Of a stretch of 58,184 nucleotides of DNA, positions 15,524-30,861 are shown in pieces. A model generated the notes under the pieces. The model was given only the letters and a program-made list of their open reading frames with translations. It had not been told where the DNA came from and did not search any database. Numbering within the stretch: position 1 is the first letter of the stretch; the number at the start of each line of letters is the position of its first letter. The DNA is from an uncultured Candidatus Saccharibacteria bacterium (GTDB lineage Bacteria; Patescibacteriota; Minisyncoccia; Phycocordibacterales; UBA9973), in NCBI GenBank assembly GCA_964362545.1, contig CAYIEM010000002.1:1-58184 (forward strand), written 5' to 3'. A program made the position numbers and the translations under genes.

Positions 15524-15890
15524 ATTTAAAAATTTTTCCTAAAAAGGCAATTACCACACCTCGTTTATTTTCCGGCTCCGTTTCTACTTTTTCTTCAACT
15601 GAAGTCAAAACATCAGAAACATTTACTTCAACCTTTTGCTTTATCACTGCATCTTCGCCTTTGGGTGCGATTTTTGTTTCCTCAATATCAGTTAGAACTT
15701 CCCCGTCAACTTTAGTGTAAATCTTTACCTCTGCTCTGCTTTCTCCTTCCACTACACTCCCGCCGCCAGCCGAGTTACCACCTGTAGAGGCTGAAGTGGA
15801 AATATTATTGACAATCTCCACAGCCGAAAGGGATGCAAAAGGGACAAGCATCGCAGTTACAAATAATATTTTTTCAATAAATTTTTTCAT
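15504..15890 (-). CDS. Small secreted protein with one TGxNxA module
   Basis: Signal peptide followed by IVNNISTSASTGGNSAGGGSVVEGESRAEVKIYTKV. Its 3' end overlaps the next gene by 20 nt. Confidence 0.6.
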   Translation of the reverse strand: MKKFIEKILFVTAMLVPFASLSAVEIVNNISTSASTGGNSAGGGSVVEGESRAEVKIYTKVDGEVLTDIEETKIAPKGEDAVIKQKVEVNVSDVLTSVEEKVETEPENKRGVVIAFLGKIFKYVLSIF

Positions 15891-15976
15891 TTCCCTCGAA
15901 CTCCCCGCCGTTTTTTAAAAACCGCGAGGCGCCCGAAGGTCCTCCGCTAATAAACGGAAGACACTTCGAAGAAGAA

Positions 15977-16648
15977 CTATCTTACGTAAGTTCTATTCAC
16001 ATTGACATTAGTTCTGACAACGGTTGTGGATGTGGCGCCACCGGTGCGAATTTCTCCACCGACATCACCATTACCCCCTGCGCCTCCGCCGTTCGCGTTA
16101 AGATCATTACCGTGTCCTCCGACAGAACCAGCGTTGCCGCCAGCGCCACCGCTAGATCCTTCGGCTATATTGCTTCCGGTTTCTGCTTCGGTTTCAACAT
16201 TGTTTTCAACTTGAGCTTCGTTTCTGCTTTTAACTTTCAAGTAGCGACCATTATACTCCTCATATTCGTTATATTCATACCCTTCACAACCGCATGAGTC
16301 TACTTTGGTCTTGTTATGGTTGACTCGGTTGGTAACCGTAGTCAAAGCTGAAGCATCGCCAGTCGTAATGAGACCTCCGGCTCCGCCGTTTCCTCCGGCT
16401 CCGCCTTGTGAATCATTCTCGTCATTCTTGGTTCCGCTGATGTCTCCGCCGTTTCCTCCGGCTCCGCCAGCGCTTCCGCCAGCTAGGTTCTCGCCAGTGT
16501 TAGCTTTGGTTTCAACCGTGTTTGAAACATGAGCAGAGTTGGAACTCCTAATCTCGACATCATCGCTCCAGAAAAAAGCTGAAGCTGACAATGGAGATGT
16601 TGATACAACAAATGTTAGAATTGCAAAAATTGCTATATACTTTTTCAT
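15977..16648 (-). CDS. Gly-rich secreted protein built from two TGxNxA modules with GGAGGNGG inserts
   Basis: Signal peptide, then two about 80-aa halves: VETKANTGENLAGGSAGGAGGNGG...TTGDASALTTVTNRVN and VETEAETGSNIAEGSSGGAGGNAG...RTGGATSTTVVRTNVN. Confidence 0.65.
   Translation of the reverse strand: MKKYIAIFAILTFVVSTSPLSASAFFWSDDVEIRSSNSAHVSNTVETKANTGENLAGGSAGGAGGNGGDISGTKNDENDSQGGAGGNGGAGGLITTGDASALTTVTNRVNHNKTKVDSCGCEGYEYNEYEEYNGRYLKVKSRNEAQVENNVETEAETGSNIAEGSSGGAGGNAGSVGGHGNDLNANGGGAGGNGDVGGEIRTGGATSTTVVRTNVNVNRTYVR
16381..16405. repeat. 25-nt perfect direct repeat, copy 1 (CTCCGCCGTTTCCTCCGGCTCCGCC)
   Basis: Identical to 16444..16468. The offset is 63 nt (in frame), inside the Gly-rich gene. 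Confidence 0.9.
16444..16468. repeat. 25-nt perfect direct repeat, copy 2
   Basis: Identical to 16381..16405. Confidence 0.9.
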
Positions 16649-16746
16649 TTTGTTTTTTGTTTAGTTAATTTGTAATAAGAATTTCTATTTTATCCCTTAA
16701 GGGCCAACAAAAGAAAAGTTCTTTTTTATCGACCGCTTGAATCCGC

Positions 16747-16800
16747 TTGGAATCCAAGAGACGAAAGACGTTCGTTCATCTTCCGTCTTTTGAATTCCAA
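16747..16800. other. Long imperfect hairpin (17-nt arms TTGGAATCCAAGAGACG / CGTCTTTTGAATTCCAA) with an alternative inner stem AAAGACG/CGTCTTT
   Basis: Read directly: two forward AGACG copies compete for one CGTCT. Confidence 0.5.
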
Positions 16801-16807
16801 CCAACAT

Positions 16808-16840
16808 AAAAAAGCAACGCGTAAAACGTGTTGCTTTTTT
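16808..16840. terminator. Bidirectional-looking terminator hairpin: A6-GCAACGCG-TAAAA-CGTGTTGC-T6
   Basis: 8-bp stem with one G-U pair on the + strand (A-C on the - strand), flanked by A-run and T-run. Confidence 0.55.
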
Positions 16841-17064
16841 CTATAAAACTCCTCTTTTGTGACGGGAAACGATTTCATCTGAAGTCGCGCCTTCTTTGGT
16901 TTCCCTTCAAAGAAAGCTTTTGCTATTACTTTGCTATGTAAACTACAATATACTCTCTTTCTTGGTTGTCAACTATGTTTTCCCCAAGTCCGACTAGTCC
17001 TCTATAAGAACCTGCCATTGCGATAAAACTTCTGAAAATGATATAATATCAATAAAGAAAAAAC

Positions 17065-17133
17065 TCCCGGGAGGGGCGCTAGATGGGAAACTAACCTATT
17101 TATAAGGTAAGTAATCTAACGTCCCTCTCGGGA
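17065..17133 (+). other. 20-bp-stem hairpin (17 WC + 2 G-U + 1 mismatch on the + strand) with a 29-nt loop, followed by ATTTTTG
   Basis: TCCCGGGAGGGGCGCTAGAT ... ATCTAACGTCCCTCTCGGGA. The G-U pairs exist only on the + strand, arguing for a + strand RNA, either a terminator or a small structured RNA. Confidence 0.45.
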
Positions 17134-17284
17134 ATTTTTGTATTTACTCTAAAAATTGGATAAATCTACAACAAGAACGCAAAAATTTTAATACTTTTTT
17201 AGTATTACACTTCTAACCTCATTTGTCAAGTCCGCGTTATGGTTCAATACCTTGGAATCACCCTAAGTGGTTTAAGGTATGGTC

Positions 17285-17401
17285 ATGGCATATACAACAA
17301 ATGAAAACGCGGGTAAGGTACGAATACAAGCAATTCGTATGATTCGAGACAGTAAAAGCACTCGAGAAGTAGCAAGATATCTGGGATACGCTCTTGCGTA
17401 A
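17285..17401 (+). pseudogene. 38-codon ORF resembling the N-terminal HTH of a DDE (rve-type) transposase; truncated remnant
   Basis: MAYTTNENAGKVRIQAIRMIRDSKSTREVARYLGYALA*. The K-V-R-x-x-A-[IV]-R-[ML]-x3-G/S-x-S-x-R-x-VAR-x-x-G pattern is like IS481/IS3-type transposase N-termini. It stops after the HTH and sits exactly at the GC shift. Confidence 0.4.
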
Positions 17402-17479
17402 AGATAAATTTAATGCATAATTGAAAATTAAGGAATAATTACACGCCGCCAGATTTAATAATCATTTAAATAATTTTTT

Positions 17480-18913
17480 ATGCAAATCAACCCTTATATT
17501 TTTCGTAATTATGACATCCGCGCACGCGTGCCGGACGAAATTGACACGGCTAAAGTCGAAGCTATCGGCAAATCTTACGGCACTTTCCTGCGCCGCCGCA
17601 AAATTCGCCAGGCTGTGGTCGGTTATGACTGCCGCCTGTCCGGACCAGAATTTCACGCCGCTTATATCAACGGACTCACCTCTACCGGCGTTGATGTTGT
17701 CGATATCGGTATGTGTATGACCCAGATGGTTTATTGGAGCCAATATTATTTTCAAACCAACGGTGCGACCATGATTACCGCCTCGCATAATCCCAAAGAT
17801 TTCAACGGTTTTAAAATCGCCACAGCTTTTTCTCAGACGACCCTACCTCGCGATATAAAAGAGATAAGGGAGGCAGTGGAAAAAGATAAATATTTCGTTG
17901 CGGAGAAAAAAGGCGCGGTCACCGAAGTTGATATTCATGGGGCTTATCAAAAGGACATTCTGAAAAGAGTCGATATTAAAAAGAAATTAAAGGTATTAGT
18001 TGATTTTCGCCATGGCACACCGGCTTTTTTTATTCCGGAAATTTTGCGCGCTGCCGGCTGCGATGTCATTGCAAAAAATGATACGGTGGATGGCAGCTTC
18101 CCCAAAGGCACGCCCGATCCGACCGATGAAGATTACATGCGCGGATTGGGCGAGGAAGTGAAAAAGGGAAATTTTGACGTTGCTTTTTGTTATGATGGCG
18201 ACGGTGATCGCATCGGTCTAGTAGACGAAAAAGGCCGAATTATGTGGAACGATATGATGCTAGCAATTTTTGCGGGAGAGATACTGGAAAGATTCCCAGG
18301 CGGTAAAATTATTTACAACACTCTCTGTTCGCAAGTCGTTCCTTGGGCTATCAAACAAGCCGGCGGAGTACCAATTATGTGGCTTACCGGCCATACTTTC
18401 ATTAAAGATAAGATGATTACGGAAAACGCGGTTTTTGGCGGTGAACTCTCCGGTCATTTCTTTTTCCGGGACAACTTTTACGGTTATGACGATGGCACTT
18501 ACGCGACGTTGCGCGTTCTGGAATATATGTCGGAAAAGAATTTAAAAATGAGCGAAATTTTTGACCGTTACCCTAAATATTATTCTTCTCCGGAGATCAA
18601 AATCGGTTGTCCGGACAGCAAAAAAGTCGAAGTTATAAGGATACTTTCGGAAAAATTCAAGAAGGACTTTCCAAACGGGCGCGTGAGTGACGAACACAAC
18701 ATCCCCGGCAACGATGGCGCCAGGATTGACTTCGACGACGGGATGATGATTTTTCGCTACTCACAGAATGGTCCCTATATTACAGTGAGATTCGAAGCTA
18801 AAGACAAAACAATGTATAACAAGAGAAAAGATTATTCCCGTGAAATTCTGGAATCCTACCCGGAAATGATATGGAAAGACGAGCTTTGCGTTAATCTTGA
18901 TGCGCTAAAATAA
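17480..18913 (+). CDS. Phosphomannomutase/phosphoglucomutase (alpha-D-phosphohexomutase)
   Basis: IFRNYDIRA start, active-site ITASHNPKDFNG, Mg site CYDGDGDRIG, sugar loop GGELSGHFFF. Confidence 0.9.
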   Translation: MQINPYIFRNYDIRARVPDEIDTAKVEAIGKSYGTFLRRRKIRQAVVGYDCRLSGPEFHAAYINGLTSTGVDVVDIGMCMTQMVYWSQYYFQTNGATMITASHNPKDFNGFKIATAFSQTTLPRDIKEIREAVEKDKYFVAEKKGAVTEVDIHGAYQKDILKRVDIKKKLKVLVDFRHGTPAFFIPEILRAAGCDVIAKNDTVDGSFPKGTPDPTDEDYMRGLGEEVKKGNFDVAFCYDGDGDRIGLVDEKGRIMWNDMMLAIFAGEILERFPGGKIIYNTLCSQVVPWAIKQAGGVPIMWLTGHTFIKDKMITENAVFGGELSGHFFFRDNFYGYDDGTYATLRVLEYMSEKNLKMSEIFDRYPKYYSSPEIKIGCPDSKKVEVIRILSEKFKKDFPNGRVSDEHNIPGNDGARIDFDDGMMIFRYSQNGPYITVRFEAKDKTMYNKRKDYSREILESYPEMIWKDELCVNLDALK

Positions 18914-18980
18914 ATTACACCAGACCAGATCATTTATATCAAGTAGACTTCGAAATTCTCTGGTTTATAATAGTAGAAAG

Positions 18981-20405
18981 ATGAAATATAAAGGATGGTC
19001 TACAGTAGTAATAATTGCTTTTGTATTTGTAATAAGCACTAATAATAAATTAGCCACAGCAGCAACTGTACCTTCGCCTGATATTCTATACAGCGACTGG
19101 AAAAGTCGTTTTGTTACCTCGTCGGGCGCCAGTGGGTTTTTGCGTGTCCGAGTAACTGAAGATAATGATGTCACTGTTTCAGAAGCCCAAGGATACGGCA
19201 TGCTTCTGTCGGCATATCGGGCTGATAAAAGCACGTTTGACAAACTCCTTTCTTATACCGAAAAATATCTTGATCCCCGCGGCTTGATGCACTGGAAAAT
19301 AGATAAGAACGGGAACGTTGCCGGTCAAAACGCGGCGACCGACGGCGATGAAGATATTGCTTACGCGCTCCTCGTAGCCCACAGCAAGTGGGGCGAACCT
19401 TACGGAGGTAAAGCCAAAATTTATATTAAAAACATTTTTGACTACGAGGTTGAACCCGACACTTACGTTTTAAAACCGGGCGATGTCTGGGGCGGTTCAG
19501 ATATTACAAACCTTTCTTATTGCGCTCCGGCTTTTTATCGCGCCTTCGCCGAATTTACCGGAAACCAGGATTGGTTCAAAGTTATTGACCGCTGTTACGA
19601 CATTCATGAAAAAGCCGAAAATACTGCGACAGGACTTGTGCCCGACTGGACCACAATAGACGGCGGCTCTGCTGTAGGCCTAACCCATAACCCTAACAAA
19701 GACAATTTCTCTTATAACGCGATCCGCGTGCCTTGGCGGCTTTTTATGGACTATAAGTGGTTCGGAGAACCGCGAGCTTACAACAATATTAACCTCATGG
19801 CTAAATTCTTCGCTGGAGAAAATTCTCTTTACAGTGGCTACACCCTCCCCGGATCTCCGACCGTAAATTATTTTGATACCACTTTCGCGGCTGGGATAGC
19901 CACGGCCGCGGCAGGATCCGAAGAAGGTGCTTTTGCGTCAAAAATTCTTGAAAAACTTTCTTCGATGAACCCGTCGAGTTACTATGGCGCTTCTCTTCGA
20001 ACTCTCGCTCTGCTTCTTCTTTCCGGCAATTTCCCGGCAGTTGTTTTGCCTGCGAGTACTGGAAGCTCTGCGCCTTCCCCCTCTCCCGCACCGGAGCCAC
20101 CTCCAGTTGGACAATATGTGATCATTCTTGAAGATCCGAACGACAACCAAGAAATCTCTGGAGAGAAAAAGATAAAAGCTTATATAGACAACATTACGTT
20201 AAAAAACTACACGATGACTTATTCAGTTGACGGATCGAAGGAAGTGCCGATGGCTGACGCAGCCGGTATGTTTAAACAAATAAAAGTACAATTCGACAGC
20301 TGGACATGGAACAAAGCAGGACCTTATAAAGTAACTCTTACGGCTCGCGATCTTTCCGGAAACATCATCGGAACCAAACTTTTTTCACTTTTCGTTAAGC
20401 AATAA
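18981..20405 (+). CDS. Secreted GH8 endoglucanase with Pro/Ser linker and C-terminal Ig-like domain
   Basis: Signal peptide. ATDGDEDIAYALLVAHSKW fits the GH8 signature A-[ST]-D-[AG]-D-x2-[IM]-A-x-[SA]-[LIVM]-[LIVMG]-x-A-x3-[FW]. Linker SSAPSPSPAPEPPP. Confidence 0.8.
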   Translation: MKYKGWSTVVIIAFVFVISTNNKLATAATVPSPDILYSDWKSRFVTSSGASGFLRVRVTEDNDVTVSEAQGYGMLLSAYRADKSTFDKLLSYTEKYLDPRGLMHWKIDKNGNVAGQNAATDGDEDIAYALLVAHSKWGEPYGGKAKIYIKNIFDYEVEPDTYVLKPGDVWGGSDITNLSYCAPAFYRAFAEFTGNQDWFKVIDRCYDIHEKAENTATGLVPDWTTIDGGSAVGLTHNPNKDNFSYNAIRVPWRLFMDYKWFGEPRAYNNINLMAKFFAGENSLYSGYTLPGSPTVNYFDTTFAAGIATAAAGSEEGAFASKILEKLSSMNPSSYYGASLRTLALLLLSGNFPAVVLPASTGSSAPSPSPAPEPPPVGQYVIILEDPNDNQEISGEKKIKAYIDNITLKNYTMTYSVDGSKEVPMADAAGMFKQIKVQFDSWTWNKAGPYKVTLTARDLSGNIIGTKLFSLFVKQ

Positions 20406-20448
20406 AAGTGGTAAGCTTTAAATACGAAAAACACAGGTAGTGGAAGTT

Positions 20449-20859
20449 TCAGGAATTTTTGATTCTTTCCCGCAACTCAGTAGTGGAATAGGAGTGGTTT
20501 CGGTTGTTGTAGTAGATTTTTATGGGTAAATCGTGACCGGTAAATTTTTTACCTTTCCAGTCGGCTCCGATTATGCGTATGTCAGGTTTCAGTTCTTTCA
20601 AGATGTTATACAAATCATCTTCTGTTCTGTAGATAATAATTTCATCCACATACCGGTTTGCTTTTAGCTGGATGTATCTTTCCTCCAGTGTCTGAATGGG
20701 TGTACTTTTCTTCTTTCCTCTGTACTCCAAAGGGGCTACGCTCGGATCATCATGAAGCCCCACAATAAGCCAGTCGCATTGTTTCTTGGCTTCTTCCAGC
20801 ATCAAACAATGCCCCGCATGGAGCAAATCGAAGGCCGAAAAAGTGATTCCTTTTATCAT
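20449..20859 (-). CDS. Cytidylyltransferase, TagD-like (glycerol-3-phosphate cytidylyltransferase family)
   Basis: FSAFDLLHAGH (HxGH) and C-terminal HSYSTTELRERI (RTxGISTT-like). 136 aa. Confidence 0.75.
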   Translation of the reverse strand: MIKGITFSAFDLLHAGHCLMLEEAKKQCDWLIVGLHDDPSVAPLEYRGKKKSTPIQTLEERYIQLKANRYVDEIIIYRTEDDLYNILKELKPDIRIIGADWKGKKFTGHDLPIKIYYNNRNHSYSTTELRERIKNS

Positions 20860-20973
20860 ATAATTTTAATTACGAACATAATAATACCCAAAATATACCA
20901 CACTTTTTATTAAAATCAAGACCCCCTGTTGAGTTTTTCGATGCGACATTTAAAGTCATATAAACATGCTCTG

Positions 20974-22656
20974 TCATTCCACGTCAGGAATTAATGCAGG
21001 AATTAGCAACTTATCTCCTATCTCTATCCGGTGCGGGTTAATAATATTGTTCGCCTCCACTATAACGTCATACTTTTTGGCATTTTTGTAAAATCTCTTG
21101 GCAATTGAGGAGAGATTGTCGCCCCGCACCACTTCATAATATACTTCATATTTTTCTTCCAAATATTCGGCTTGGTACACATGAAGCCACAGGGTCCTTG
21201 AAAATTGACGTTTTTCAAGTTTCCGAAGATTCGAGTCAAAATAATCTTTTACTTCCGTGGCACCCTCCAGGTTATCCGCCATAAAGAGAAAAATTCGCTT
21301 ATGATGCCCTTTCACAATCTCCGCGTCCGCTTCAATCCTCTCCCTTGTAGCGAGAGGAATGGCGCCCTTGCGCTTATCCCAGATGGGCATCGAAGTCACC
21401 TGGGCCATACCCCGGTAATAATATTGAAAAGGATAAACGACATACGGAGGCGCCAAGGCGACTACGTCCCGCGGGGTTACCGTTTCGCTGATGTATCGAG
21501 CGGCTTCGCGGTAGTCTTCTTTGGCCGGGTTTTCGGCGCTCACATACTGGTTTACAAGTGATACCGCGATACCTAGAAACAGGATGAATGCGAATGCCTT
21601 CTTGCCAAATCCGCGCAGTTCGCCGAGCGTCCAGGCGAGAAGTATGTAGTAAAGCGGAGAAACTATAGACAAATACCTGGTAAGATACATCGGTTTTAAA
21701 AGCACGCTCACCCCGAACACGATAATGATCGGAAGCAATATGCCGGCGCACACAAGGATCATTCCTTTCCCCGAATACTTTCTTTTAGAGAGAAAAACAA
21801 ATCCGAGCAGAATTACCGCGGGCCACAGAGCGATAATGGTAGACGTAATGGCGTCTGACTGAAAACCGAAGGTGAATTCAAAGAAGCTCAAGGCAATATT
21901 GAAGGTCGTGGGACGTTCAAGCACTGGAGCGAGCGATCCTGATCCGTATGAATTTAAAAGCTCGTAGGCCCACGGAAAGAATGCCGCCGCCAGAATAACG
22001 GCAACCAGAATAAGCTTTATGAATATTTTTTTCTTTTCCGGAACATTGACGCTGAAATTACTCTTCCATGTGGTAAAGAAGAAAACTATCTGCGACAAAA
22101 GAACCAGAAAGAAAAAGTAATGGGTATACATTCCGATCAGGTTCACTGCCACGTAACCGGCGTAAGACAGGAAGCGATCGGTTTTCAGAATGCGAAGCAG
22201 AAAGTAGTACGAAAGGGTTGTGACCAGAATAAGAAGCGTGTACATTCTGATTTCCCGGCTATACCACACCCAGAATGGCGAAAGAGCGCCGATTGCCGTG
22301 GCCAGAAGGGCGATTTTTTCTTCAAAAAGCTCTTTCGCCAAAAAAAACAAGGCAAAAAGCGCGAGGACCCCTGGTATCAGCGAAAGAGCTCTCACGGATA
22401 CTTCTCCTGAACCGAAAAAATACATCCAGAAATGAAGCACTGTGTTGTGAAGCGGAAGATGCACGTTTTTCAGCATGTAGGTGGCGATGAAAGATGCCGA
22501 ATGCGAAGCCTGCCAGACGCTCTGTGCCTCGTCGAGGCGCAGGCTTTCCCCTCCCAAGTTCCAAAGCCGTAGAAAAACACCGACCGCTATGATAAGGGCC
22601 ACCAGGACGAACGTTTTCCAAAAATTATTTCTTGAGCTGGGTTCGGTGTTATTCAT
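20974..22656 (-). CDS. GT-C fold glycosyltransferase (family 39, ArnT/PMT-like) fused to a C-terminal LysM domain
   Basis: About 11 TM helices, first-loop LRLDEAQSVW motif, C-terminal YEVVRGDNLSSIAKRFY...IEIGDKLLIP (LysM). Its start overlaps the upstream stop in ATGAATAA. Confidence 0.8.
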   Translation of the reverse strand: MNNTEPSSRNNFWKTFVLVALIIAVGVFLRLWNLGGESLRLDEAQSVWQASHSASFIATYMLKNVHLPLHNTVLHFWMYFFGSGEVSVRALSLIPGVLALFALFFLAKELFEEKIALLATAIGALSPFWVWYSREIRMYTLLILVTTLSYYFLLRILKTDRFLSYAGYVAVNLIGMYTHYFFFLVLLSQIVFFFTTWKSNFSVNVPEKKKIFIKLILVAVILAAAFFPWAYELLNSYGSGSLAPVLERPTTFNIALSFFEFTFGFQSDAITSTIIALWPAVILLGFVFLSKRKYSGKGMILVCAGILLPIIIVFGVSVLLKPMYLTRYLSIVSPLYYILLAWTLGELRGFGKKAFAFILFLGIAVSLVNQYVSAENPAKEDYREAARYISETVTPRDVVALAPPYVVYPFQYYYRGMAQVTSMPIWDKRKGAIPLATRERIEADAEIVKGHHKRIFLFMADNLEGATEVKDYFDSNLRKLEKRQFSRTLWLHVYQAEYLEEKYEVYYEVVRGDNLSSIAKRFYKNAKKYDVIVEANNIINPHRIEIGDKLLIPALIPDVE

Positions 22657-24298
22657 GTCGCGTGTCTTTATTTTCCGGATTAAGCACCTCTCTTTCGATC
22701 ACGCCCAGCACAGCGGCCGTTTTCGGACGGAGCAGGGGTGCTTTCATAGAGAGAGTGTCCGAACGGAACCATGTTTTTATTCTCTCCGGTATCGCGCGCC
22801 ACGGATAAGCGACGCGGATAAAACCGAAAAAGAAAACAATATTAAAAACTATCCAGGCGCTGTTTGTCATCACGGAAGGCGTGAGCCCGTAGGTATAAAC
22901 GGCATAGACGATAGCGCAAATAGAGATAACAGCGTAGATGATGTTGGGCAGGGCGTACATGATATAGTTCCCGGCCTGTACAGTTTTTGGAGTAATGTTC
23001 CAGCTATCTTTCACTCCCGTCATGGCCGAGATGGTCGCGCGAAAAAAGACAAAGAAAGAACTCATGGACATCTGAATCGCCCGGAAAGTTATTTCGAACT
23101 TGGTCGAACGCATCAAAAGATAAATAGTCGAGAAAATGAAGGGGAAAAAATAAGCCATGAAATCGTGCGTGTTTTCCCTGATCGGAGAAATATTCGTCGT
23201 AATGACGACGATGGGAATGACGGCATCCACGAGCGCCACAAGCCCATTTAAGTAATAGCTCGAAGAATACAGATAGTGGATTTTCTGAGCAAAGGTAAGC
23301 CCCTTGCGGAAAAATGGATTATAGTGGAAAATCACATCGAGACAGCCTCTTGCCCACCGATACTGCTGTTTCGCGAAAGAGCCGAGATCAAGAGGCGCCA
23401 TTCCCTCCGAAAGCACTTCGGGAACATACACAGACTCATATCCTTTCCCGTGAAGCAAGAGAGAAACCAAAAAATCTTCCGTAATCGAATCGGTCGGAAT
23501 GCCTCCAACCATTTCAAGAGCGCTCCTTCTAAGCACGGCATTGGTCCCGCACCAGAAAGTCGCGTTATCAGAGTTCTTTCCTCGACAAATCGGGCCAAAA
23601 AAAAGCTCCTGCTGTTCCCAGGCCGCCTCAGTGAGATAATTTTCCTCGTGATTTGCGTAATACTGGGGTGTCTGTACCAAAGCCATTTTTTCGTTCTCGA
23701 AATACCCCATAGTGCGCGCCAAAAATTCCGGATAAGGCGCCTGGTCTGTGTCGAAAAGAGCGAAAAACGGCGCGTCTGTATGCTTTAGGGCATTGTTGAT
23801 ATTGCCCGCCTTCGCCCCGCCCGGAATATCACGGGTTATCACCGAAACGCCGAGCCTCTTTCCGAGATTTTCTACTTCCCGCCAGTTTTCTTTTTTAGCC
23901 ACAAACCCGTCGTTTAAAACGAACACCTGAAAATCAGGATACTCCATCGCTTTAGCCGCCAAAATAGTTTTTTCTGTAACCTTTAACGGCTCTCCGCAGG
24001 CTGTGATGAAAACGTCCACTCGCGGAGCATACGATCCGAGCATTTTCGGCTGGTAGGGCTTTTGATTACGGACCGTGAAAAGGTACCCGACCGCTTGCCA
24101 AACGTGATAGACTTCTCCGGCAAAGAGAAGTGAAAAAAGGATCCAGGAAGAAGCGTTCGAGAAATCCAGCCACCATCTCGCGTAAATTATCGTAAGGAAA
24201 AGACAAGTTATTATTAATATTTTTGGAACGATTTCGCCGGGCAGTATGAAAGGACGCTTCGGAGCCAGAGAGGCCAGAGAAGAAAAAGGAGTGTTCAT
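22649..24298 (-). CDS. Processive family-2 beta-glycosyltransferase, cellulose synthase (BcsA)-like, without a PilZ domain
   Basis: VDVFITACGEP, VLNDG, KAGNINNAL, FDTDQ, VQTPQYY, FWCGTNAVLRR, ITEDF and QQYRWARG run parallel to the BcsA D,D,D,QxxRW motif set. 549 aa; the C-terminal tail has no RxxxR/DxSxxG. Confidence 0.8.
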   Translation of the reverse strand: MNTPFSSLASLAPKRPFILPGEIVPKILIITCLFLTIIYARWWLDFSNASSWILFSLLFAGEVYHVWQAVGYLFTVRNQKPYQPKMLGSYAPRVDVFITACGEPLKVTEKTILAAKAMEYPDFQVFVLNDGFVAKKENWREVENLGKRLGVSVITRDIPGGAKAGNINNALKHTDAPFFALFDTDQAPYPEFLARTMGYFENEKMALVQTPQYYANHEENYLTEAAWEQQELFFGPICRGKNSDNATFWCGTNAVLRRSALEMVGGIPTDSITEDFLVSLLLHGKGYESVYVPEVLSEGMAPLDLGSFAKQQYRWARGCLDVIFHYNPFFRKGLTFAQKIHYLYSSSYYLNGLVALVDAVIPIVVITTNISPIRENTHDFMAYFFPFIFSTIYLLMRSTKFEITFRAIQMSMSSFFVFFRATISAMTGVKDSWNITPKTVQAGNYIMYALPNIIYAVISICAIVYAVYTYGLTPSVMTNSAWIVFNIVFFFGFIRVAYPWRAIPERIKTWFRSDTLSMKAPLLRPKTAAVLGVIEREVLNPENKDTRHE

Positions 24299-24300
24299 GT

Positions 24301-25494
24301 TTATTCTAACTTACTTAGGTCTAGTAATCGTCCCGCATGAAAGGCCAGCCCAAACCATACCCAGTTCTGGGCGTAATAGCCGAGCGGTTTTGAAAAGTCT
24401 TCTATGTCCGGATCATAAAGAGGCGCGAGCTTACCCGCGAATATCTCCTTGGCGAGATCGGGGCGCTTGATTTTGAAATAAGGGTAAGTTGCAGCATACA
24501 TACTGGAGCTTTCGTCCTCACGTGCGGGTAGTCCGTCATGTGTGTAAGCGCTGAAGAGTATCCCTCTCTTCTCCCACTCTAAAGCAAGAAACCCGAGAGT
24601 GTCTAAATATTTTTCGGCTCTCTCGTCTTTATGCCATACAAAATCAAGCGCGACCCGCCAGGGAACGCGGAAAGCATCGTCTGAGAAATCGGTTGTCTTA
24701 TCCGCGTATGGCGGAGGTGTAGCAGAAAGAGTTTTCCTGTCGAAACTCGCCCAGTCCGGAGGTAGAGAAACGCTTGTTTTTTTATTGAGAGAGGATTCCG
24801 TAACTTTTTGCAGCATTTCATAGGAAGTATTTTTCACCGCCATCCAGTCGTGAATCCTATCCGCTTCCGCGAAGATCGGATAAGCATAAAACATATAATA
24901 GGAGGGATTAATGGAAAGAGAGCCGTCTTCTTTCGCCCAGTTTCCTGCCAGAAGATACGGTTTCCCGCTCACTGTCTGTATTTCCTTGTCCCAGATGTCT
25001 TTGAGTATTTTGATCGCCTGTTCCATATAATGGTCCTGATTCCACCGCTTGGAAGCAAAAATGAGCGCTAGGGCAATATCCTGGTCTGCATCGGAGGCAC
25101 TGTTTATGCCTCCCTCATCCCTAAGCACATCCCATTTTCCTTCCGCGTCTTTTCCCCATTTCCACGCGAATAATTCATCCGGACGCTTGCCTAGGTTGTG
25201 GTTGGTCCACTTGAGCACCTGGTCGAAAACATCCTTCTCGTCCATCCACACTGCCCTAAGGAGCGCGTACGATTGCCCTTCGGATGTGGTGATGTAGTCC
25301 CTATCGCGGTCTATGGTTCGTCCGTCTCTTTGGATTTTGTCTTTGTGTGCTATCCACAAGTTGTCCACCGCAAGGTTGGGATAGGTGTTGATGAACGTAG
25401 AATTATCCGAAATGGCGGAAATCGCCAAAGACGTAAGCAGGTGGCTTACAAGGACAATCGACGATATTATTTTTGTAAAAAATGTCTCTATCAT
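24301..25494 (-). CDS. GH8 endoglucanase (BcsZ-like position)
   Basis: ASDADQDIALALIFASKRW fits the GH8 signature exactly. N-terminal TM/signal segment. Ends 2 nt upstream of the synthase gene. Confidence 0.8.
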   Translation of the reverse strand: MIETFFTKIISSIVLVSHLLTSLAISAISDNSTFINTYPNLAVDNLWIAHKDKIQRDGRTIDRDRDYITTSEGQSYALLRAVWMDEKDVFDQVLKWTNHNLGKRPDELFAWKWGKDAEGKWDVLRDEGGINSASDADQDIALALIFASKRWNQDHYMEQAIKILKDIWDKEIQTVSGKPYLLAGNWAKEDGSLSINPSYYMFYAYPIFAEADRIHDWMAVKNTSYEMLQKVTESSLNKKTSVSLPPDWASFDRKTLSATPPPYADKTTDFSDDAFRVPWRVALDFVWHKDERAEKYLDTLGFLALEWEKRGILFSAYTHDGLPAREDESSSMYAATYPYFKIKRPDLAKEIFAGKLAPLYDPDIEDFSKPLGYYAQNWVWFGLAFHAGRLLDLSKLE

Positions 25495-25500
25495 AATGTT

Positions 25501-26496
25501 TTACGGATTTTCTTTGCTGATAAAAGGCGTCCCATCTAACATAGAGGCAGATCTATCTAAAAGAAAAGATATCCCTCCGAAGAGAAGCGTACCGAGAAGA
25601 GTTGAAATATCTACTGAAAGAGACGCGAGCACAGCGGTTTCCTTGCCGATTCCAGATAGAAGAAGACCCGCTACCCACCCCGCTTCCATAACTCCCAAAC
25701 CCGCTATGTTCGGTATGGTATTCGTGAAAATCTGAACCGCCCCTCCTACTACGATAGCCAAGGGCGGAATATTAAAACCAAACCCTTTCATAAAAAACCC
25801 ATAGGCTAAAAACATCGTTCCCCAAAGCAAAACGGAGTACAGGATGGCTCTTTCGTACACCCGGCACTCTTTGAATTGTCCGAAGGCGTTTACCACTTTC
25901 GTCAAAAACGTCTCCGCTTTGTTTCGAAAGGCGCCAACGGGGATAAGACGGAGTATTTTGCTGCCGAGAAAAAGCGCTAAAGACGGGCGGGTGGAAAGAA
26001 TAAACAACACGCCTACGCCAAAGACTATAACAGTGAAAGATATTAATGTCCACCAGAGCCCTGCTTTGCCCGCTGCTCCAAGGGTGAAAACAAGTCCCGC
26101 TGTCAGAAAGCAGGCCACGATAATAAAATCCAGAGTACGGTTCACAATCACTACGGCGAGGGAATCCGGGTACGGAATGTTACGCCCTTTCATCTGATTC
26201 ATAAACACGAACTCCCCTGCGGGGTTCGGGAGAATTCTAACAGCCATGTTGTGAATACCGGTAAGAATCGCCAGTGTTTTGAAAGAAAGCGCGGAAGGCA
26301 GGAACGCTTTCACCCTAAAAGTCCTCCACGCATAGGTCAAGAAGTACACCGCGGCGCCAAGAGTAAGCCAGAGCGCCGAGATATTTTTTTTCATTTCTCT
26401 AAGCGCTTCCATGTCTATGCCGGAAAGAACCCAAGTAATCAGAACTACTGTAATAACGGATGCAATTATTTTTCTGTTTCTTTGAAGAAAGCGCAT
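25501..26496 (-). CDS. Flippase-like polytopic membrane protein (LPG_synthase_TM / UPF0104 type)
   Basis: 331 aa, about 8 TM helices, N-terminal basic segment, GxxxxP-rich loops typical of the family. The assignment rests on pattern memory only. Confidence 0.6.
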   Translation of the reverse strand: MRFLQRNRKIIASVITVVLITWVLSGIDMEALREMKKNISALWLTLGAAVYFLTYAWRTFRVKAFLPSALSFKTLAILTGIHNMAVRILPNPAGEFVFMNQMKGRNIPYPDSLAVVIVNRTLDFIIVACFLTAGLVFTLGAAGKAGLWWTLISFTVIVFGVGVLFILSTRPSLALFLGSKILRLIPVGAFRNKAETFLTKVVNAFGQFKECRVYERAILYSVLLWGTMFLAYGFFMKGFGFNIPPLAIVVGGAVQIFTNTIPNIAGLGVMEAGWVAGLLLSGIGKETAVLASLSVDISTLLGTLLFGGISFLLDRSASMLDGTPFISKENP

Positions 26497-26521
26497 ATTA
26501 TTTTTTATAATATTCTGTATT

Positions 26522-27520
26522 TTATCCGACGATTCTCCGGATTACGTATGTCTTTTTGTTTTGGGATTCAAAATAAATCCTGGAAAGCACTTCTCCCAGT
26601 ATACCCAGAATGACGATCTGGATTCCGGCAAGGATCAGTGATACGGACAAAAGCAAAAGCGGGCGATTCGCGATTTCCTCTCCCCGAAAAATCTTGATAT
26701 AACTTAGATAGCTTCCTATCACAAGCCCGCTTCCCAAAAAGAGAACGCTCAATCCTCCAAAAAACCGGATGGGCTTCGTCAAAAACCGAATAAGGAACTG
26801 TATCACCAGAAGATCAAAAATGACCTTAAAAATCCTGCCCAGCCCATACTTAGATCTGCCAAATTTTCTTTCGTGATGATTCACTTCGATTTCGCCCACC
26901 TTGAAGCCCCCGATACTCGCGAAGGCCGGAAGAAACCTATGCATATCGCCGTAAAGGTGTAGACCTTCGAGCGCCTCCCGGCGGTAAGCTTTCAGGGTAC
27001 ACCCATAGTCGTGCAATCGCACGCCTGTGAGCGCTCCGATCAAGCGGTTGGCAAGTACGGAAGGAATCCGGCGGGTGATGAGCTTATCTTTCCGGTCCTT
27101 CCTCCAGCCGGAAACTACGTCGTACCCCTCTTCTATCTTCGATAAGAGGCGCGGAATGTCCGCCGGATCGTTCTGCAAATCGGCATCCATTGTGATGATT
27201 ATTCCCCCACGGGCAAGATCAAAGCCGGCAGACATAGCGGCCGTTTGTCCGAAATTCCTCCGCAATTCTATTCCCCTGACCCTAGAGTCTTTCTTCTGCA
27301 AGCGCTCAATGACCTTCTGTGTGCCGTCTTCGCTCCCGTCATTGATAAATAATATTTCCGAATTCGCCAGATTGCCGGAGGCTACGGCGGAGATCTTTTC
27401 ATAAAGCAAGGCAAGACTTTCCTCCTCGTCTTTTACCGGAATGACAATAGAAATAATGGGTGGCGCGATCTGCCCACCCGAGTCAGAAGGTATTATTTTT
27501 TTTATTGTGTATTCTTTCAT
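26522..27520 (-). CDS. GT2 polyprenyl-phosphate glycosyltransferase (GtrB/ArnC/DPM1-like) with two C-terminal TM helices
   Basis: ISIVIPVKDEEESL, INDGSEDGT, MDADLQNDP. The track start at 27532 is TTG, so I use the ATG at 27520 (MKEYTIKK). Confidence 0.8.
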   Translation of the reverse strand: MKEYTIKKIIPSDSGGQIAPPIISIVIPVKDEEESLALLYEKISAVASGNLANSEILFINDGSEDGTQKVIERLQKKDSRVRGIELRRNFGQTAAMSAGFDLARGGIIITMDADLQNDPADIPRLLSKIEEGYDVVSGWRKDRKDKLITRRIPSVLANRLIGALTGVRLHDYGCTLKAYRREALEGLHLYGDMHRFLPAFASIGGFKVGEIEVNHHERKFGRSKYGLGRIFKVIFDLLVIQFLIRFLTKPIRFFGGLSVLFLGSGLVIGSYLSYIKIFRGEEIANRPLLLLSVSLILAGIQIVILGILGEVLSRIYFESQNKKTYVIRRIVG

Positions 27521-27634
27521 TCCAAAATCCAATCCAAACTAATAATCCTAAAAACAAAGCCGATTATGTACCTACATTCTTAATAATGTATGGTCTATAA
27601 AATAATATAAAAACAAAAAAAAGTCAATAGCACG

Positions 27635-28375
27635 TTACTTCTCCACATTTATTGTCGCTGGTTTTTTTAGTTTATTGCGTATAGCAAATCCTATAATAAA
27701 CGCCAAAACAAGGATGATAACACCATAGACAATGTTTTTTGAGAGAGGAATTTCGGCGCTTATTGCCGTAGCTAGTTGAGTGTCCGCATCGATAGATGTC
27801 TGGTCGCTTCCTGCAGAACCCCCTGAGGTATTTGTCCCCCTATTGTTTGCTGTATTTTGAGAAGTTGTCGCAGAGAAAATGTTGGTCGACTGTGCTGTGG
27901 ATCTGGTGATGATAATCTGAGAATCATGCAAGGCCCCAGAGAAAGTGTCGCTGTTGGCGCCGTCAAGCACTTGTGTATCCTCATGAAGGACAATATTCGC
28001 AACACCTTCCCCTCTTGCCCTGAAAATAATCGAGCCGAATAATTTGTCCGTCGAAAAACCACCAGGATAGCCGGCAGTTTTCATAATAAAGCCGCTTGTC
28101 ACAACGTCATATCCGGAAACAGGGAGCGTTAGCCATGTCGGAGCAAAGGAGAATGATACGACCTCCAACATGTCGCCTGGATAAGACACGGCTATTCTTG
28201 AGGTGTAAACTTTTTCACCCGAAATAGGGACAACTGTCACAGAAACAGAAAACTGTTCACCCAATCTCACATTTTGGTTTGATGCCGAGAGAGATATGTC
28301 GGTTTCCGCCTCCACAAAAATCGGAGCTAGTGTGAGGGCGAGAAACATAAATAAAGTTAGCGTGATTTTTTTCAT
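27635..28375 (-). CDS. Cohesin-like domain protein with signal peptide and C-terminal TM anchor
   Basis: MKKITLTLFMFLALTLAPIFVEA, then LSASNQNVRLGEQFSVSVTV...IAVSYPGDMLEVVSFSFAPTW...GSIIFRARGEGVANIVL (cohesin-type beta-sandwich pattern). Ser/Thr/Gly/Asn linker, then TM helix VYGVIILVLAFIIGFAI. Uses the ATG at 28375; the track start at 28399 is TTG. Confidence 0.6.
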   Translation of the reverse strand: MKKITLTLFMFLALTLAPIFVEAETDISLSASNQNVRLGEQFSVSVTVVPISGEKVYTSRIAVSYPGDMLEVVSFSFAPTWLTLPVSGYDVVTSGFIMKTAGYPGGFSTDKLFGSIIFRARGEGVANIVLHEDTQVLDGANSDTFSGALHDSQIIITRSTAQSTNIFSATTSQNTANNRGTNTSGGSAGSDQTSIDADTQLATAISAEIPLSKNIVYGVIILVLAFIIGFAIRNKLKKPATINVEK

Positions 28376-28389
28376 ATTTTTATTACGTA

Positions 28390-30615
28390 TTATTTCCAAT
28401 TAACAATTAATAAATTAAAGTCGAATATATCAACAACATTATCGTTGTTAAAATCTGCCGGATTGTTCGGACCGACTTCTCCCCAATGGATGATCAAGGT
28501 ATTAAAATCAAAAATGGTAAAAACTTGGCTCGAGTTAGTATTACTGGTGTTCCTTCTTCTACTGCTTCCACCTCCGCCACCACTACTTCCCCCACTATCC
28601 TCCAATGTAGGGGCAGAAACGATAACCGTTCTAACGATTTCTACTGCCTGATTTAAGGCAGCATCGATTGCGTTATATGTAATTCTATAAGTGCCGACAG
28701 CTCCGGTATTCACTGTGTCTCCGCCGATAGCAACAACTACAGCTCCGTCTATATTGTCAGTAGCGGTAGCGCCTTGTTCGGTATAAGTTTCCCCGGTGTT
28801 TAGATTTATGGTTGCGGAACCAGTAAGTGTGATGATTGGGGGAATAGTATCAGTTGCCGGAGGGACTATAGTTGTAACTTCGACAATAGCATGATCTAAA
28901 CGTTTCACTGCTATGTTGCCTGCAAAGACTTGGCCATTAAGCCAAGACATTTGAGTATCAAAATCAGCCTTGTGCGTGTCAAAAGTATCAAATTCTGCTC
29001 CGGCTGGTATAATTCCGTGATAGACAAGAATCAGCCAAGTTTTATCTTCTTTCGCTTTATTTACCCATTCTTGAAACTGAGATAAGGTGGTTGTCGGTCT
29101 CATGTTTTGAACTCTAAGTCTGTAAACATTTAAATTGTCTCTTGAATTATATCCCTCATCTACTGTCCGATGAGCTCTGTAATAATCATTTATTTGGTCT
29201 ATAACCGCGGCATTGTAATCTCCGAAAGGACTGGAGAAACTAGTTACCGGAGTACCTCCGATTAAATTCTCTAGATATGCTTGCGGCTCTGAAAGCTCGG
29301 CGGCAACTTGCGCGGGAGAAATCTCTGTCAAAAAAGGATGCGTGATGGTGTGAGAACATATCTCGTGTCCGGCATTAAATAATGTATTGACAGAAGCAGG
29401 ACTTTCATCACCCACTATGAGAGGTCTAGTATTGAAACAATGTGTAGTATCAAAATCATAGTTTTCAAGCACTGGCAGAGCGTTGATTATGTTACCCTCT
29501 GTTATGTCATCAAACGTCAAAGTGATAAGAGGTCTGTTGAAACCACTGAATGTGTAAGGAGTAATGTGATAGTCATCCGACTGTATCCATCCATTTTCTC
29601 TAAGAATGAAAAATACCTGCACCCCTACAGAACCCATGGGTACAAAAAATTCACTGGAGTATTCTTGCCAGACTGTCGCACTGCTAGCTCCTGGAAATGG
29701 ATTTGGCAAACCAAAAAAAGTCGCGTTGCCGGCTCCATCTAAAAATCGAGCAACTACGCGAGGAGTGCTTCCTGTGCTTGACTTGTACCAGGCTGTAAAT
29801 CGATAGTCTCCTCCCGGAGTCAGTGGTTGTGGACTAAATACCCAATTTGCATCACCGTCGACGTAGTTTGTGACCGTAAACTTGACGCTTTTAGAACCAG
29901 TGTGTCCATCATTGTTTATATATTCGTAAGTGCGAGTGTTGTTGCCGAATCCGCCACGAAGCCATGCGCGGGGTGTGTCAGGATTGACAGAGATCTCCTC
30001 CAGAGAATTATTGGGAACCAAATCTGTCACACCGACAGATGAAACGGGTACCAAACTCGTATTATCTATTTCCAACCAGCCGTTACTCTCTAAGAGATGA
30101 TAAACAACCAACCATTCTGTAGTATTCAGAGTATGTATTTCAACACCAATTTCCTTCCAGGAACTTGGAGAAGCGGCAACTACCGGGACCCCGTCAGTGT
30201 AAGTAAACTGCGATGGAACAGCGCCATTTCCCTGACCTATCATTATATGCGTCGGCACATTGGATCTATAACTGTTCTTGTAGATGTAGTCGCTGTTCGG
30301 ATTAACTTTTACTATTTCGAAGGCCCATTTAGAATCACCGGAAGTATAATTGCTAATGTCCACTCTTGCTGCTTTACTGCCTACTCCATTAGCCCCCTCC
30401 ACCGGGTAAGTGAAAATCGCAGTATTGTTTTGGTAAGTACTCGTCTCCCAATTGTCTGGTGTCGTGAGAGTTGCGACCTCAAGTGAAGGATTCAAGATGA
30501 GGTTGCCGGGAATTATATCTTCTACCGCAGAAACATCTATCGGGATAATCGAAAAAATCGCAAGTCCGACAAACATTCCTATTTTTATTGAAATCAATTT
30601 TATGTGATTCTTCAT
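28390..30615 (-). CDS. Multidomain secreted polysaccharide deacetylase (CE4): two CBM-like modules, NodB domain, DUF5011/Ig-like domain, C-terminal dockerin
   Basis: NodB-type TLTFDDITEGN and HEICSHTITH. Ig-like PPIITLTGSATINLNTGETYTEQGATATDNIDG. C-terminal NTNSSQVFTIFDFNTLIIHWGE + DFNNDNVVDIFDFNLLIVNWK, which is two dockerin segments (D1,N3,D5,D9,D12 Ca-loop in the second). Start moved to the ATG at 30615 because the GTG at 30681 lies inside the predicted -10 box. Confidence 0.75.
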   Translation of the reverse strand: MKNHIKLISIKIGMFVGLAIFSIIPIDVSAVEDIIPGNLILNPSLEVATLTTPDNWETSTYQNNTAIFTYPVEGANGVGSKAARVDISNYTSGDSKWAFEIVKVNPNSDYIYKNSYRSNVPTHIMIGQGNGAVPSQFTYTDGVPVVAASPSSWKEIGVEIHTLNTTEWLVVYHLLESNGWLEIDNTSLVPVSSVGVTDLVPNNSLEEISVNPDTPRAWLRGGFGNNTRTYEYINNDGHTGSKSVKFTVTNYVDGDANWVFSPQPLTPGGDYRFTAWYKSSTGSTPRVVARFLDGAGNATFFGLPNPFPGASSATVWQEYSSEFFVPMGSVGVQVFFILRENGWIQSDDYHITPYTFSGFNRPLITLTFDDITEGNIINALPVLENYDFDTTHCFNTRPLIVGDESPASVNTLFNAGHEICSHTITHPFLTEISPAQVAAELSEPQAYLENLIGGTPVTSFSSPFGDYNAAVIDQINDYYRAHRTVDEGYNSRDNLNVYRLRVQNMRPTTTLSQFQEWVNKAKEDKTWLILVYHGIIPAGAEFDTFDTHKADFDTQMSWLNGQVFAGNIAVKRLDHAIVEVTTIVPPATDTIPPIITLTGSATINLNTGETYTEQGATATDNIDGAVVVAIGGDTVNTGAVGTYRITYNAIDAALNQAVEIVRTVIVSAPTLEDSGGSSGGGGGSSRRRNTSNTNSSQVFTIFDFNTLIIHWGEVGPNNPADFNNDNVVDIFDFNLLIVNWK

Positions 30616-30671
30616 GCTGAAACTATACCCGTGATTCTTTATATATTGATTTTTTAAGAATTGGTGTTTTG

Positions 30672-30699
30672 ATATTAACACAACATGTAACTAAAGCAA
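30672..30699 (-). promoter_or_regulatory. Sigma70-like promoter TTGCTT-16-TAATAT for the CE4/cohesin operon
   Basis: Read on the minus strand: cacTTGCTTtagttacatgttgtgtTAATATcaaaac. Confidence 0.5.
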
Positions 30700-30756
30700 G
30701 TGTGTATAACAATGCGCGAACTTGAAAATAAAAAGGAGGATTATTTTTGCACCTGT

Positions 30757-30793: not shown

Positions 30794-30813
30794 ATGAATT
30801 ATGAATGTGCCAC

Positions 30814-30839: not shown

Positions 30840-30861
30840 AGTAAATATAATCTATTATTTT

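Follow-up and report, generated by a model that had tools for sequence, protein, structure and literature searches.

Genes of the block

The window analysed here is a stretch of 58,184 nucleotides (nt) from an uncultured bacterium labelled Candidatus Saccharibacteria (GenBank assembly GCA_964362545.1, contig CAYIEM010000002.1, positions 1 to 58,184); the source is a 64.6-kb contig from the 0.1 µm filter fraction of Hainich groundwater, well H51. It contains a GC-rich block of eight genes (17480-27532) built around a BcsA-like, cellulose-synthase-type glycosyltransferase. The core of the block—a glycoside hydrolase family 8 (GH8) glucanase, the synthase and a GT-C-type glycosyltransferase (GT)—recurs in many bacteria of the Candidate Phyla Radiation (CPR, Patescibacteria), organisms thought to be host-attached and of minimal biosynthesis, whose surface coat is very little known. 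An initial annotation, made from the sequence alone, had read the block as a horizontally acquired locus foreign to such genomes; the comparisons below suggest that it was probably acquired, from within the CPR.

Pfam and NCBIfam agreed with all eight gene identities (Table 1), which were those proposed in the initial annotation. With gaps of 25, 6, 2, -8 and 114 nt between them, the six minus-strand genes look like a single operon read from about 27.6 kb, of which the ArnC-like family 2 glycosyltransferase (GT2) gene is the first; the two plus-strand genes converge on them. A promoter-like site in the right border (27627-27599, minus strand) is a consensus match only, and a scan for promoter and terminator consensus sequences gave counts barely above those of shuffled sequence and was uninformative.

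The synthase aligned with BcsA structures over residues 11-499 (7lby: 19-499; 4hg6: 11-488; E ~1e-52), the solved proteobacterial structures scoring only 183 bits. It keeps the family-invariant motifs for UDP binding and catalysis (LNDG, DxD, TED, QQxRW, KAGN and FWCG) and the likewise invariant gating-loop Thr and Lys, the loop reading WNITPK (FxVTxK in BcsA), and residues D130, D183/D185, E274-D275, Q311-Q312-R314-W315, T436 and K438 were invariant in 14 family members. Pfam matched no PilZ domain in it; the BcsA alignment ends ahead of the PilZ region, and the protein ends soon after its last transmembrane (TM) helix. Set against curated equivalog cutoffs, it reached 277 of 699 bits for TIGR03030 and 206 of 992 bits for PRK11498. 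No match to the BcsB family turned up in a scan of the 40 proteins encoded from 5 to 49 kb.

The gene for the GT-C enzyme begins within that for the synthase, its start overlapping the synthase stop by 8 nt. An AlphaFold2 model of the protein (pLDDT 92.3, pTM 0.86) found its best fold matches in the PDB in ArnT (5ezm/5f15; E 3e-9, TM-score 0.52-0.55), followed by STT3/AglB/PglB, ALG9/12 and Pmt4. All of these enzymes act at the outer membrane surface of the cell on donors linked to polyprenyl phosphate. Residues D42-E43, in the first, extracytoplasmic loop, were invariant in 50 homologues; the C-terminal LysM domain was confined to the nearest 20 or so.

Each GH8 enzyme carries one hydrophobic segment, at its N-terminus, and GH8b, the BcsZ-like one, scored 146 bits against the BcsZ model (equivalog cutoff 299). 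GH8a has orthologues (49-58% identical) after the module in three of the homologous CPR loci compared below, which are designated by L numbers (L012, L014 and L017). Its C-terminal domain of about 95 amino acids (20100-20405), for which no Pfam family was matched, reappears at the N-terminus of GH6 enzymes adjacent to the triad in 32 other CPR loci (e.g. L082:12900-14339), and may serve these enzymes in common for carbohydrate binding or anchoring. The flippase-like protein, with some 6-8 hydrophobic segments, has counterparts at the equivalent position in L004, L005, L014 and L017, the same four loci in which the ArnC-like GT2 has orthologues of 58-67% identity. The best matches of this GT2, whose C-terminal TM segments lie at residues 230-319, were ArnC (217 bits) and PgfS (163 bits), both below cutoff. 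Also under their equivalog cutoffs were the matches of the phosphoglucomutase/phosphomannomutase (PGM/PMM) to PgmG (351 bits) and archaeal-type GlmM (325 bits), as were those of the small cytidylyltransferase-like enzyme to RfaE-II (82 bits) and TagD (70 bits). Relatives of the latter (49-59% identical) lie near the module in six loci, and because one open reading frame (ORF) adjoining the triad (L083:6935-8512) joins a GT2, a GtrA_DPMS_TM domain and a cytidylyltransferase-like domain, this small nucleotidyltransferase can be tied to the lipid-linked sugar branch discussed below.

Table 1. Positions in the window of the genes of the block, its borders and the surrounding insertion.
Feature	Position	Strand	Evidence or remark
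Lineage-specific insertion, ~29 kb	12864..41815		Absent at the S41-PBP2 site of 4/4 relatives
Left border	16649..17479		AT-rich 831-bp intergenic region, GC 0.35, no Rfam family
40-aa ORF, marginal helix-turn-helix likeness	17279..17401	+	HTH_23 E=0.009, 16.3 bits vs cutoff 24.6
Phosphoglucomutase/phosphomannomutase (PGM/PMM)	17480..18913	+	PGM_PMM domains I-IV; GC3s 0.45
GH8 'a' glycoside hydrolase (GH8a)	18981..20405	+	Glyco_hydro_8 E=2.5e-63; N-terminal membrane anchor or signal
Small cytidylyl/adenylyl-transferase-like enzyme (TagD / RfaE domain II type)	20449..20859	-	CTP_transf_like E=3.3e-15
GT-C glycosyltransferase (PMT_2/GT39-like), C-terminal LysM	20974..22656	-	PMT_2 + LysM (Pfam)
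BcsA-like processive GT2 synthase, 549 aa	22649..24298	-	No PilZ domain; CelA TIGR03030 277 bits
GH8 'b' glycoside hydrolase (GH8b; BcsZ-like), membrane-anchored	24301..25494	-	Glyco_hydro_8 E=7e-47
Polytopic membrane protein, MprF-flippase-domain family (LPG_synthase_TM)	25501..26496	-	PF03706 E=1.4e-26
ArnC/GtrB/PgfS-type GT2 (putative polyprenyl-phosphate sugar synthase)	26522..27532	-	Glycos_transf_2 E=2.9e-32
Right border	27533..27634		102-bp intergenic region upstream of operon

A triad of genes shared across the Candidate Phyla Radiation

A relative of the synthase was encoded in 390 GTDB species genomes (one genome scanned per GTDB species), belonging to WWE3, Paceibacteria, Gracilibacteria and Microgenomates-type lineages, and the best 80 of the 390 loci, almost all from Patescibacteria, were compared by tblastn of the island proteins. 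The triad of GH8 glucanase, PilZ-less BcsA-like synthase and GT-C was found in 71 of these best 80, so that the expectation of the initial annotation that cellulose-type synthase loci are atypical for CPR bacteria does not hold at the genome level. Order and strand were alike in 62 of the 80 (GH8, synthase, GT-C, with a GH8b-type gene directly upstream of the synthase), 7 had the order GH8, GT-C, synthase, and the remainder were truncated contigs. The identities of the three genes co-vary across the 71 loci (r 0.76-0.89), and the genes therefore appear to travel as a unit. Saccharimonadales (for example L079) are among the carriers of the triad.

Beyond the triad, an extended order (ArnC-like GT2, flippase-like gene, GH8, synthase, GT-C/LysM, GH8a) is common to L004 (VMGG01), L005 (JBBTQD01) and the Yonathbacteria loci L014/L017, and is retained, minus the flippase-like gene, in L012. 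Clustering of flanking ORFs showed a GT2 fused to a GtrA_DPMS_TM domain adjoining the triad in 41 loci; further recurrent neighbours were GH6 (32 loci), GH113 (7), GH5 cellulase (4) and GT87-like enzymes (7). A full-text literature search, in which subscription journals were mostly uncovered and absence is accordingly not proof, returned no paper on a CPR cellulose synthase or on this module, nor did term look-ups in a CPR protein-family paper and a 2026 review of the Minisyncoccota lead to one; the triad appears undescribed.

The homologues place nearly all of the block within the CPR. Named matches among the best 120 synthase homologues were Parcubacteria, WWE3, Yonathbacteria, Patescibacteria or unclassified ('bacterium'); for the synthase and the GT-C, every close homologue that bore a name (46-63% identical, those of the GT-C annotated as GT39 family) belonged to Patescibacteria. 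For GH8a, GH8b, the ArnC-like GT2, the flippase-like protein and the cytidylyltransferase, relatives adjoin the synthase in CPR loci. Only the PGM/PMM was ambiguous: its nearest cluster representative, 62% identical, carries the label of a DPANN archaeon, Candidatus Woesearchaeota (L097:5425-6861), and the next relatives were at most 43% identical (next cluster representative 42%, Collierbacteria). The archaeal-labelled contig is 8.7 kb long, with an NTP_transferase gene beside the PGM/PMM homologue and generic sugar-metabolism neighbours; the affinity could reflect either CPR-DPANN exchange or inter-domain relatedness, or mis-binning.

One distant member of the set has the triad in a familiar setting. 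In the Patescibacteria metagenome-assembled genome REEB45 (L068:1185-20247, GC 0.55) it lies between the genes for an M23 peptidase and ribosomal protein L9, in the same neighbourhood of FtsW, MurG and glutamyl-tRNA synthetase (GluRS) genes as is found in the backbone of the window, which points either to an old linkage with the cell-wall gene cluster or to a recurrent insertion site.

Composition, insertion site and origin

The block is a compositional island in GC content, third-position GC (GC3), synonymous codons and tetranucleotides. The initial annotation had surmised its higher GC from eight counts of single 60-nt lines, all of which were reproduced exactly. GC was 0.457 over 17285-27540, compared with 0.381 (1-12860) and 0.374 (41816-58184) in the backbone, and the GC-richest stretch of block length in the entire contig starts at about 18001. 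Per-gene GC3 was 0.43-0.555 in the eight block genes and 0.25-0.45 in other genes; at synonymous sites (GC3s) the values were 0.515 in the core of five genes (20974-27532) and 0.435 in the PGM/PMM, GH8a and cytidylyltransferase genes, as against 0.339 in the backbone. By a leave-one-out log-likelihood ratio for synonymous codons, negative values of which denote island-like usage, 8/8 block genes but 1/29 backbone genes were island-like. Tetranucleotide correlation to the backbone fell from ~0.97 to 0.72 at 22-26 kb. Long antisense ORFs were in genuine surplus: of some 29 non-genic ORFs that reach 100 amino acids or more, ten lay inside the block, which makes up 17.6% of the window, both of those cited in the initial annotation among them.

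Two commonplace causes of such a deviation were considered. Amino-acid composition was rejected as the driver of GC in the block, whose deviation lies in GC3 and synonymous codon choice, and accepted for the surface-protein genes at 12.8-16.6 kb. Expression-linked bias was likewise rejected, being unlikely because the highly expressed genes for L9 and GluRS are low in GC3. The GC rise at 13-17 kb reflects Gly/Ala-rich surface proteins with high GC at codon positions 1 and 2 and native codon usage; it is of different origin, and the borders given in the initial annotation therefore delimit the compositional anomaly accurately. The low-complexity genes in question (12779-16648) encode Gly/Ala/Asn-rich surface proteins and owe their high GC to the same two codon positions.

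Homologous loci gave a yardstick for this anomaly. In 67 of them, with host GC ranging from 0.29 to 0.61, the GC of the triad tracked that of its flanks closely (r 0.97, mean difference -0.004, standard deviation 0.022), whereas the window exceeded its flanks by 0.050 in GC (rank 1/68) and by 0.139 in GC3 (rank 2/68), and these differences are underestimates because its flanks include other island genes. The sole other such outliers of the 67 were two Nomurabacteria-labelled loci, L026 and L072 (triad at ~8700-12900), with GC3 0.14-0.15 above flanks; repeated uptake of the module by low-GC Nomurabacteria-like lineages may account for them.

The backbone of the window is Paceibacteria/Nomurabacteria-like, its GluRS matches being 76-80% identical and named Paceibacterota, Nomurabacteria or Minisyncoccia. 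Four relatives of the backbone (L084/L085, L086, L095 and L096; L096 is Nomurabacteria GW2011_GWE1_32_28, and the genomes of Ga0265297_10000035 and Ga0172379_10000128 are also among the relatives), with proteins 61-84% identical to those of the window (moderately conserved ones only 49-61%), share the gene order MraY, FtsW, MurG, GluRS, M23, further genes, L27, L9, S41 protease, small ORF, PBP2. The last three genes are adjacent in 4/4 relatives; in the window ~29 kb parts the small ORF from PBP2, and the relatives' long contigs (598, 339 and 203 kb) were not among the best 120 synthase matches. The view of the block as an accessory island therefore stands as regards its absence from relatives and fails as regards extent: the accessory region is ~29 kb long, and the 10-kb block is just its compositionally deviant part. 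Besides the block, the insertion carries genes for surface proteins, a carbohydrate esterase family 4 (CE4) deacetylase, a PKD protein, a PgaC-like GT2 and type IV pili.

Both borders of the block are continuous in independent assemblies. The left border was crossed at 100% identity by L093 (14674-22103) and L094 (14746-21589), and the right border at 99.9-100% by L088 (27251-34375), L089 (24170-29618), L090 (25898-30715) and L091 (26609-29658), these six contigs representing four other assemblies from different samples. The block is consequently not an assembly chimera, a possibility for which a check of the borders had been proposed. The European Nucleotide Archive (ENA) version of the contig has its sole scaffold gap (10 N) at 13910-13919, outside the block. 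At this gap the window has 20 bases (13900-13919), which merge two called genes (381 and 538 amino acids) into one ORF of 914.

In a neighbour-joining tree the synthase of the window grouped with those of Gr01-1014_2 and H51-bin021_1, then with loci of GC 0.48-0.53 (Yonathbacteria, L012, L007) and a WWE3 clade; Nomurabacteria-labelled loci fell in the other major clade. From the composition of the block relative to homologous loci, its absence in relatives and this tree, the block was probably NEVERTHELESS acquired in this genome, and because hundreds of related CPR bacteria share the system, the source was probably another CPR bacterium. The fuller reading, held with moderate confidence, is that the block is a copy of a conserved CPR envelope-glycan module, taken from another, GC-richer CPR bacterium by a Nomurabacteria-like lineage into an S41-PBP2 surface region, the direction and timing of the transfer being read from these comparisons. 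Of the initial proposal of a horizontally acquired locus, acquisition therefore probably stands, given composition, absence in relatives and the spanned borders, and an origin beyond the CPR does not. The island itself is an ordinary instance of compositional heterogeneity, with a probable intra-phylum transfer. It resembles classical genomic islands in its deviant composition, its surface polysaccharide genes and its absence at the relatives' site, and differs from them in having no integrase, tRNA, repeats or insertion sequence (IS) elements and, probably, in a donor from within the same phylum-level radiation.

Several observations weigh against this reading. In a repeat search over 12.3-42 kb, neither the 10-kb block nor the 29-kb insertion proved to be bounded by direct or inverted repeats, the matches being short chance pairs and low-complexity repeats in Asp-rich and Gly-rich coding sequence, and neither unit is marked by an integrase, transposase, tRNA, att-like site or terminal inverted repeat (an Rfam scan of the whole window matched only a tRNA-Gln at 57471-57544, leaving the borders empty). 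The incongruence of the tree depends on coarse NCBI labels (the L004 and L005 genomes being unplaced relative to the backbone) and on a neighbour-joining topology without support values or a species tree. The nearest homologues are just 59-63% identical, for which reason no donor can be named, and the relatives that define the empty site are themselves only 76-80% identical in GluRS. Codon usage in the insertion outside 17480-27532 is native and backbone-like, so that insertion and compositional anomaly may differ in history. The GC3 excess of L026 and L072 could be an unexplained lineage-specific bias, and the position of the triad in L068 hints at an old linkage. As to the module itself, the NCBIfam scores of all block proteins lie below equivalog cutoffs, and the block encodes no UDP-glucose pyrophosphorylase.

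Some of these points favour vertical inheritance, in which the module would be ancestral, the relatives would have lost or relocated it, and the higher GC3 would be a local compositional peculiarity. The triad is ancient, broadly distributed across CPR classes and co-diverging as a unit, no mobility signature was found, L068 has the triad in the corresponding dcw-GluRS-L9 neighbourhood, and a similar GC3 excess is seen in L026 and L072; moreover, moderately conserved backbone proteins are also only 49-61% identical to those of relatives, such that 59-63% in the synthase is not discordant by itself. This account is nonetheless unlikely, if deserving of serious weight: the break in codon usage is sharp and limited to eight contiguous genes, triad composition is host-like in the 67 other genomes, the highly expressed L9 and GluRS genes share none of the GC3 richness, the site is empty in 4/4 relatives, and none of the relatives' large contigs figures among the best 120 synthase matches.

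Transfer by way of a degraded transposon, or as IS-borne cargo, is very improbable. The initial annotation had seen a transposase remnant in the 40-aa ORF in the left border, which would be a leftover transposase N-terminus, and the ORF does have a marginal HTH_23 match exactly at the left edge. That match is below the Pfam cutoff, however, and NCBIfam gave none; tblastn detected no homologue of the ORF in any of 98 related loci; only 78 bp separate it from the next gene, a six-frame reading of the left-border intergenic region showed no transposase-like or DDE-like frame, and terminal inverted or direct repeats were not found. Upstream of the ORF, in the same intergenic region, lies an imperfect long hairpin (17058-17140; CTCCCGGGAGGG ... 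CCCTCTCGGGA, then a T-run), to which no Rfam family was matched.

The chances of acquisition from outside the CPR, for instance from a Proteobacterium or Firmicute whose genome carries a bcs operon, as the framing of the initial annotation implied, are slimmer still. Block GC above host GC, the fact that classical cellulose synthesis is best known outside the CPR, and the Woesearchaeota label on the nearest PGM/PMM representative (62%) could be cited in its support. Patescibacteria account for all the named close homologues of synthase and GT-C, however, with proteobacterial BcsA structures at only 183 bits, the block has no BcsB and its synthase no PilZ, and the extended five-gene order is common to the CPR loci L004, L005, L014 and L017. 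An outside origin is contradicted for 7/8 genes, and is refuted in so far as the named homologues of the island proteins are CPR. Finally, an assembly or binning artefact joining two populations at the GC boundaries, which low coverage of the source contig (~6.5x) and the 10-N gap at 13910-13919 might suggest, is scarcely credible given six independent contigs across the borders at 99.9-100% identity and a gap that falls outside the block.

The remainder of the insertion (12864-41815 outside the block) encodes cell-surface functions only (DUF11/peptidoglycan-binding, Gly-rich, cohesin-like, CE4 and PKD proteins, GT2s, PilB/PilC and pilins), and looks like a variable surface-structure region. 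It includes a possible second polysaccharide system of native codon usage: a PgaC/IcaA-like GT2 (34173-35198; TIGR03937 E=3.8e-33, below cutoff), a two-TM protein of 189 amino acids whose start overlaps it (35179-35748), a large polysaccharide deacetylase of family CE4 (28390-30681) and a GH26-like protein (33023-34048), a set reminiscent of PgaC/PgaD/PgaB for poly-N-acetylglucosamine. Nearby, a pair of 26-nt inverted repeats (30756-30781 and 32923-32948, 85% complementary) brackets a PKD/peptidoglycan-binding surface-protein gene (30862-32700); each arm is itself palindromic (GGACATG..CATGTCC), and the pair could be shared operator or terminator hairpins, or could bound an invertible segment.

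Possible function and relation to known systems

As far as sequence and fold allow, the products of the block can be arranged in two branches. The PGM/PMM would supply hexose-1-phosphate towards nucleotide sugars, and the PilZ-less synthase would polymerise a beta-linked glucan and export it through its own membrane channel. The product would most likely be a beta-1,4, cellulose-like chain, with which the recurrence of the GH8, GH6 and GH5 families beside the triad is consistent. With no PilZ domain there should be no gating by cyclic di-GMP (c-di-GMP), and the enzyme may work, without BcsB, constitutively or under transcriptional rather than c-di-GMP control. By analogy with BcsZ, the two membrane-anchored GH8 enzymes may trim or release chains outside the membrane. 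In the second branch, the ArnC/GtrB-like GT2 would load a sugar onto undecaprenyl phosphate, the flippase-like protein, judging by its family, might carry the lipid-linked sugar across the membrane, and the GT-C would pass the sugar to an extracytoplasmic acceptor, probably the nascent glucan or the wall, with LysM keeping it at peptidoglycan. GT2, flippase-like protein and GT-C would then form a three-component extracytoplasmic glycosylation route by which the glucan is either decorated or attached to the wall.

Three-component extracytoplasmic glycosylation systems include GtrA/GtrB/GtrC, ArnC/ArnE-F/ArnT, CsbB/GtcA/YfhO and PgfS-type systems. Features in common with them are the ArnC/GtrB/PgfS-like GT2 with C-terminal TM helices, a GT-C whose best structural match is ArnT and, in 41 related loci, the fusion of GT2 with a GtrA domain; the polytopic flippase-like protein is a candidate for the flippase. 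The set in the window differs in sharing an operon with a processive synthase and glucanases, in having for its flippase candidate, in this subclade, an MprF-flippase-domain protein and not GtrA, and in a GT-C that bears a LysM domain. The system is Bcs-like at its catalytic core and Gtr/Arn/CsbB-YfhO-like in its second branch.

Canonical Bcs systems of types I-III have a BcsA-BcsB core with BcsZ (GH8) and BcsC (PMC8892547). The synthase of the window has the full BcsA core, with TM channel region, GT2 domain with DxD, TED and QxxRW, and gating-loop Thr/Lys, and a BcsZ-like GH8b is encoded directly beside it. It has no PilZ, however, and the locus has neither BcsB nor BcsC nor any further accessory Bcs gene; the invariant partner in the CPR triad is instead a GT-C glycosyltransferase, and scores lie far under the equivalog cutoffs (CelA 277 vs 699, BcsZ 146 vs 299). 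With PilZ and BcsB absent and NCBIfam scores below cutoffs, the system falls outside the canonical Bcs types.

In its logic the system comes closest to CslA-GlxA-CslZ of Streptomyces, in which a BcsA-like synthase without BcsB needs a membrane-bound partner for activity (PMC11022532; PMC8892547). Both systems have a monoderm-type envelope, an adjacent endoglucanase and, by analogy, a wall-deposited polymer, and in 32 related CPR loci a neighbouring hydrolase is GH6. The partners are unrelated, a GT-C in the window and a copper radical oxidase in Streptomyces, and CslA, compared here by its description, is reported to retain PilZ elements (PMC11022532), whereas the synthase of the window has none. 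By the same analogy the GT-C may be an obligate partner of the synthase, as BcsB and GlxA are elsewhere (PMC8892547, PMC11022532), with which the 8-nt overlap of the two genes is consistent.

A broader proposal is offered tentatively, as more speculative than established. The triad might represent a CPR-wide type of cellulose-like synthase, undescribed in the literature found, in which a lipid-sugar-dependent GT-C replaces BcsB or GlxA as obligate partner and decorates or anchors the glucan (through LysM in this subclade), the product serving as an attachment or protection layer for ultra-small episymbionts and the module being swapped among CPR bacteria. If this were true, the GT-C would be a third partner solution, besides BcsB and GlxA, for activating a bacterial cellulose synthase. 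The block itself agrees with a view of CPR bacteria as trading modules for surface structures between lineages. The presence of the BcsA-like synthase, in a conserved operon with a glucanase and a GT-C, in no fewer than 390 species-level genomes suggests that these bacteria have widely kept a beta-glucan dedicated to the envelope or the extracellular space.

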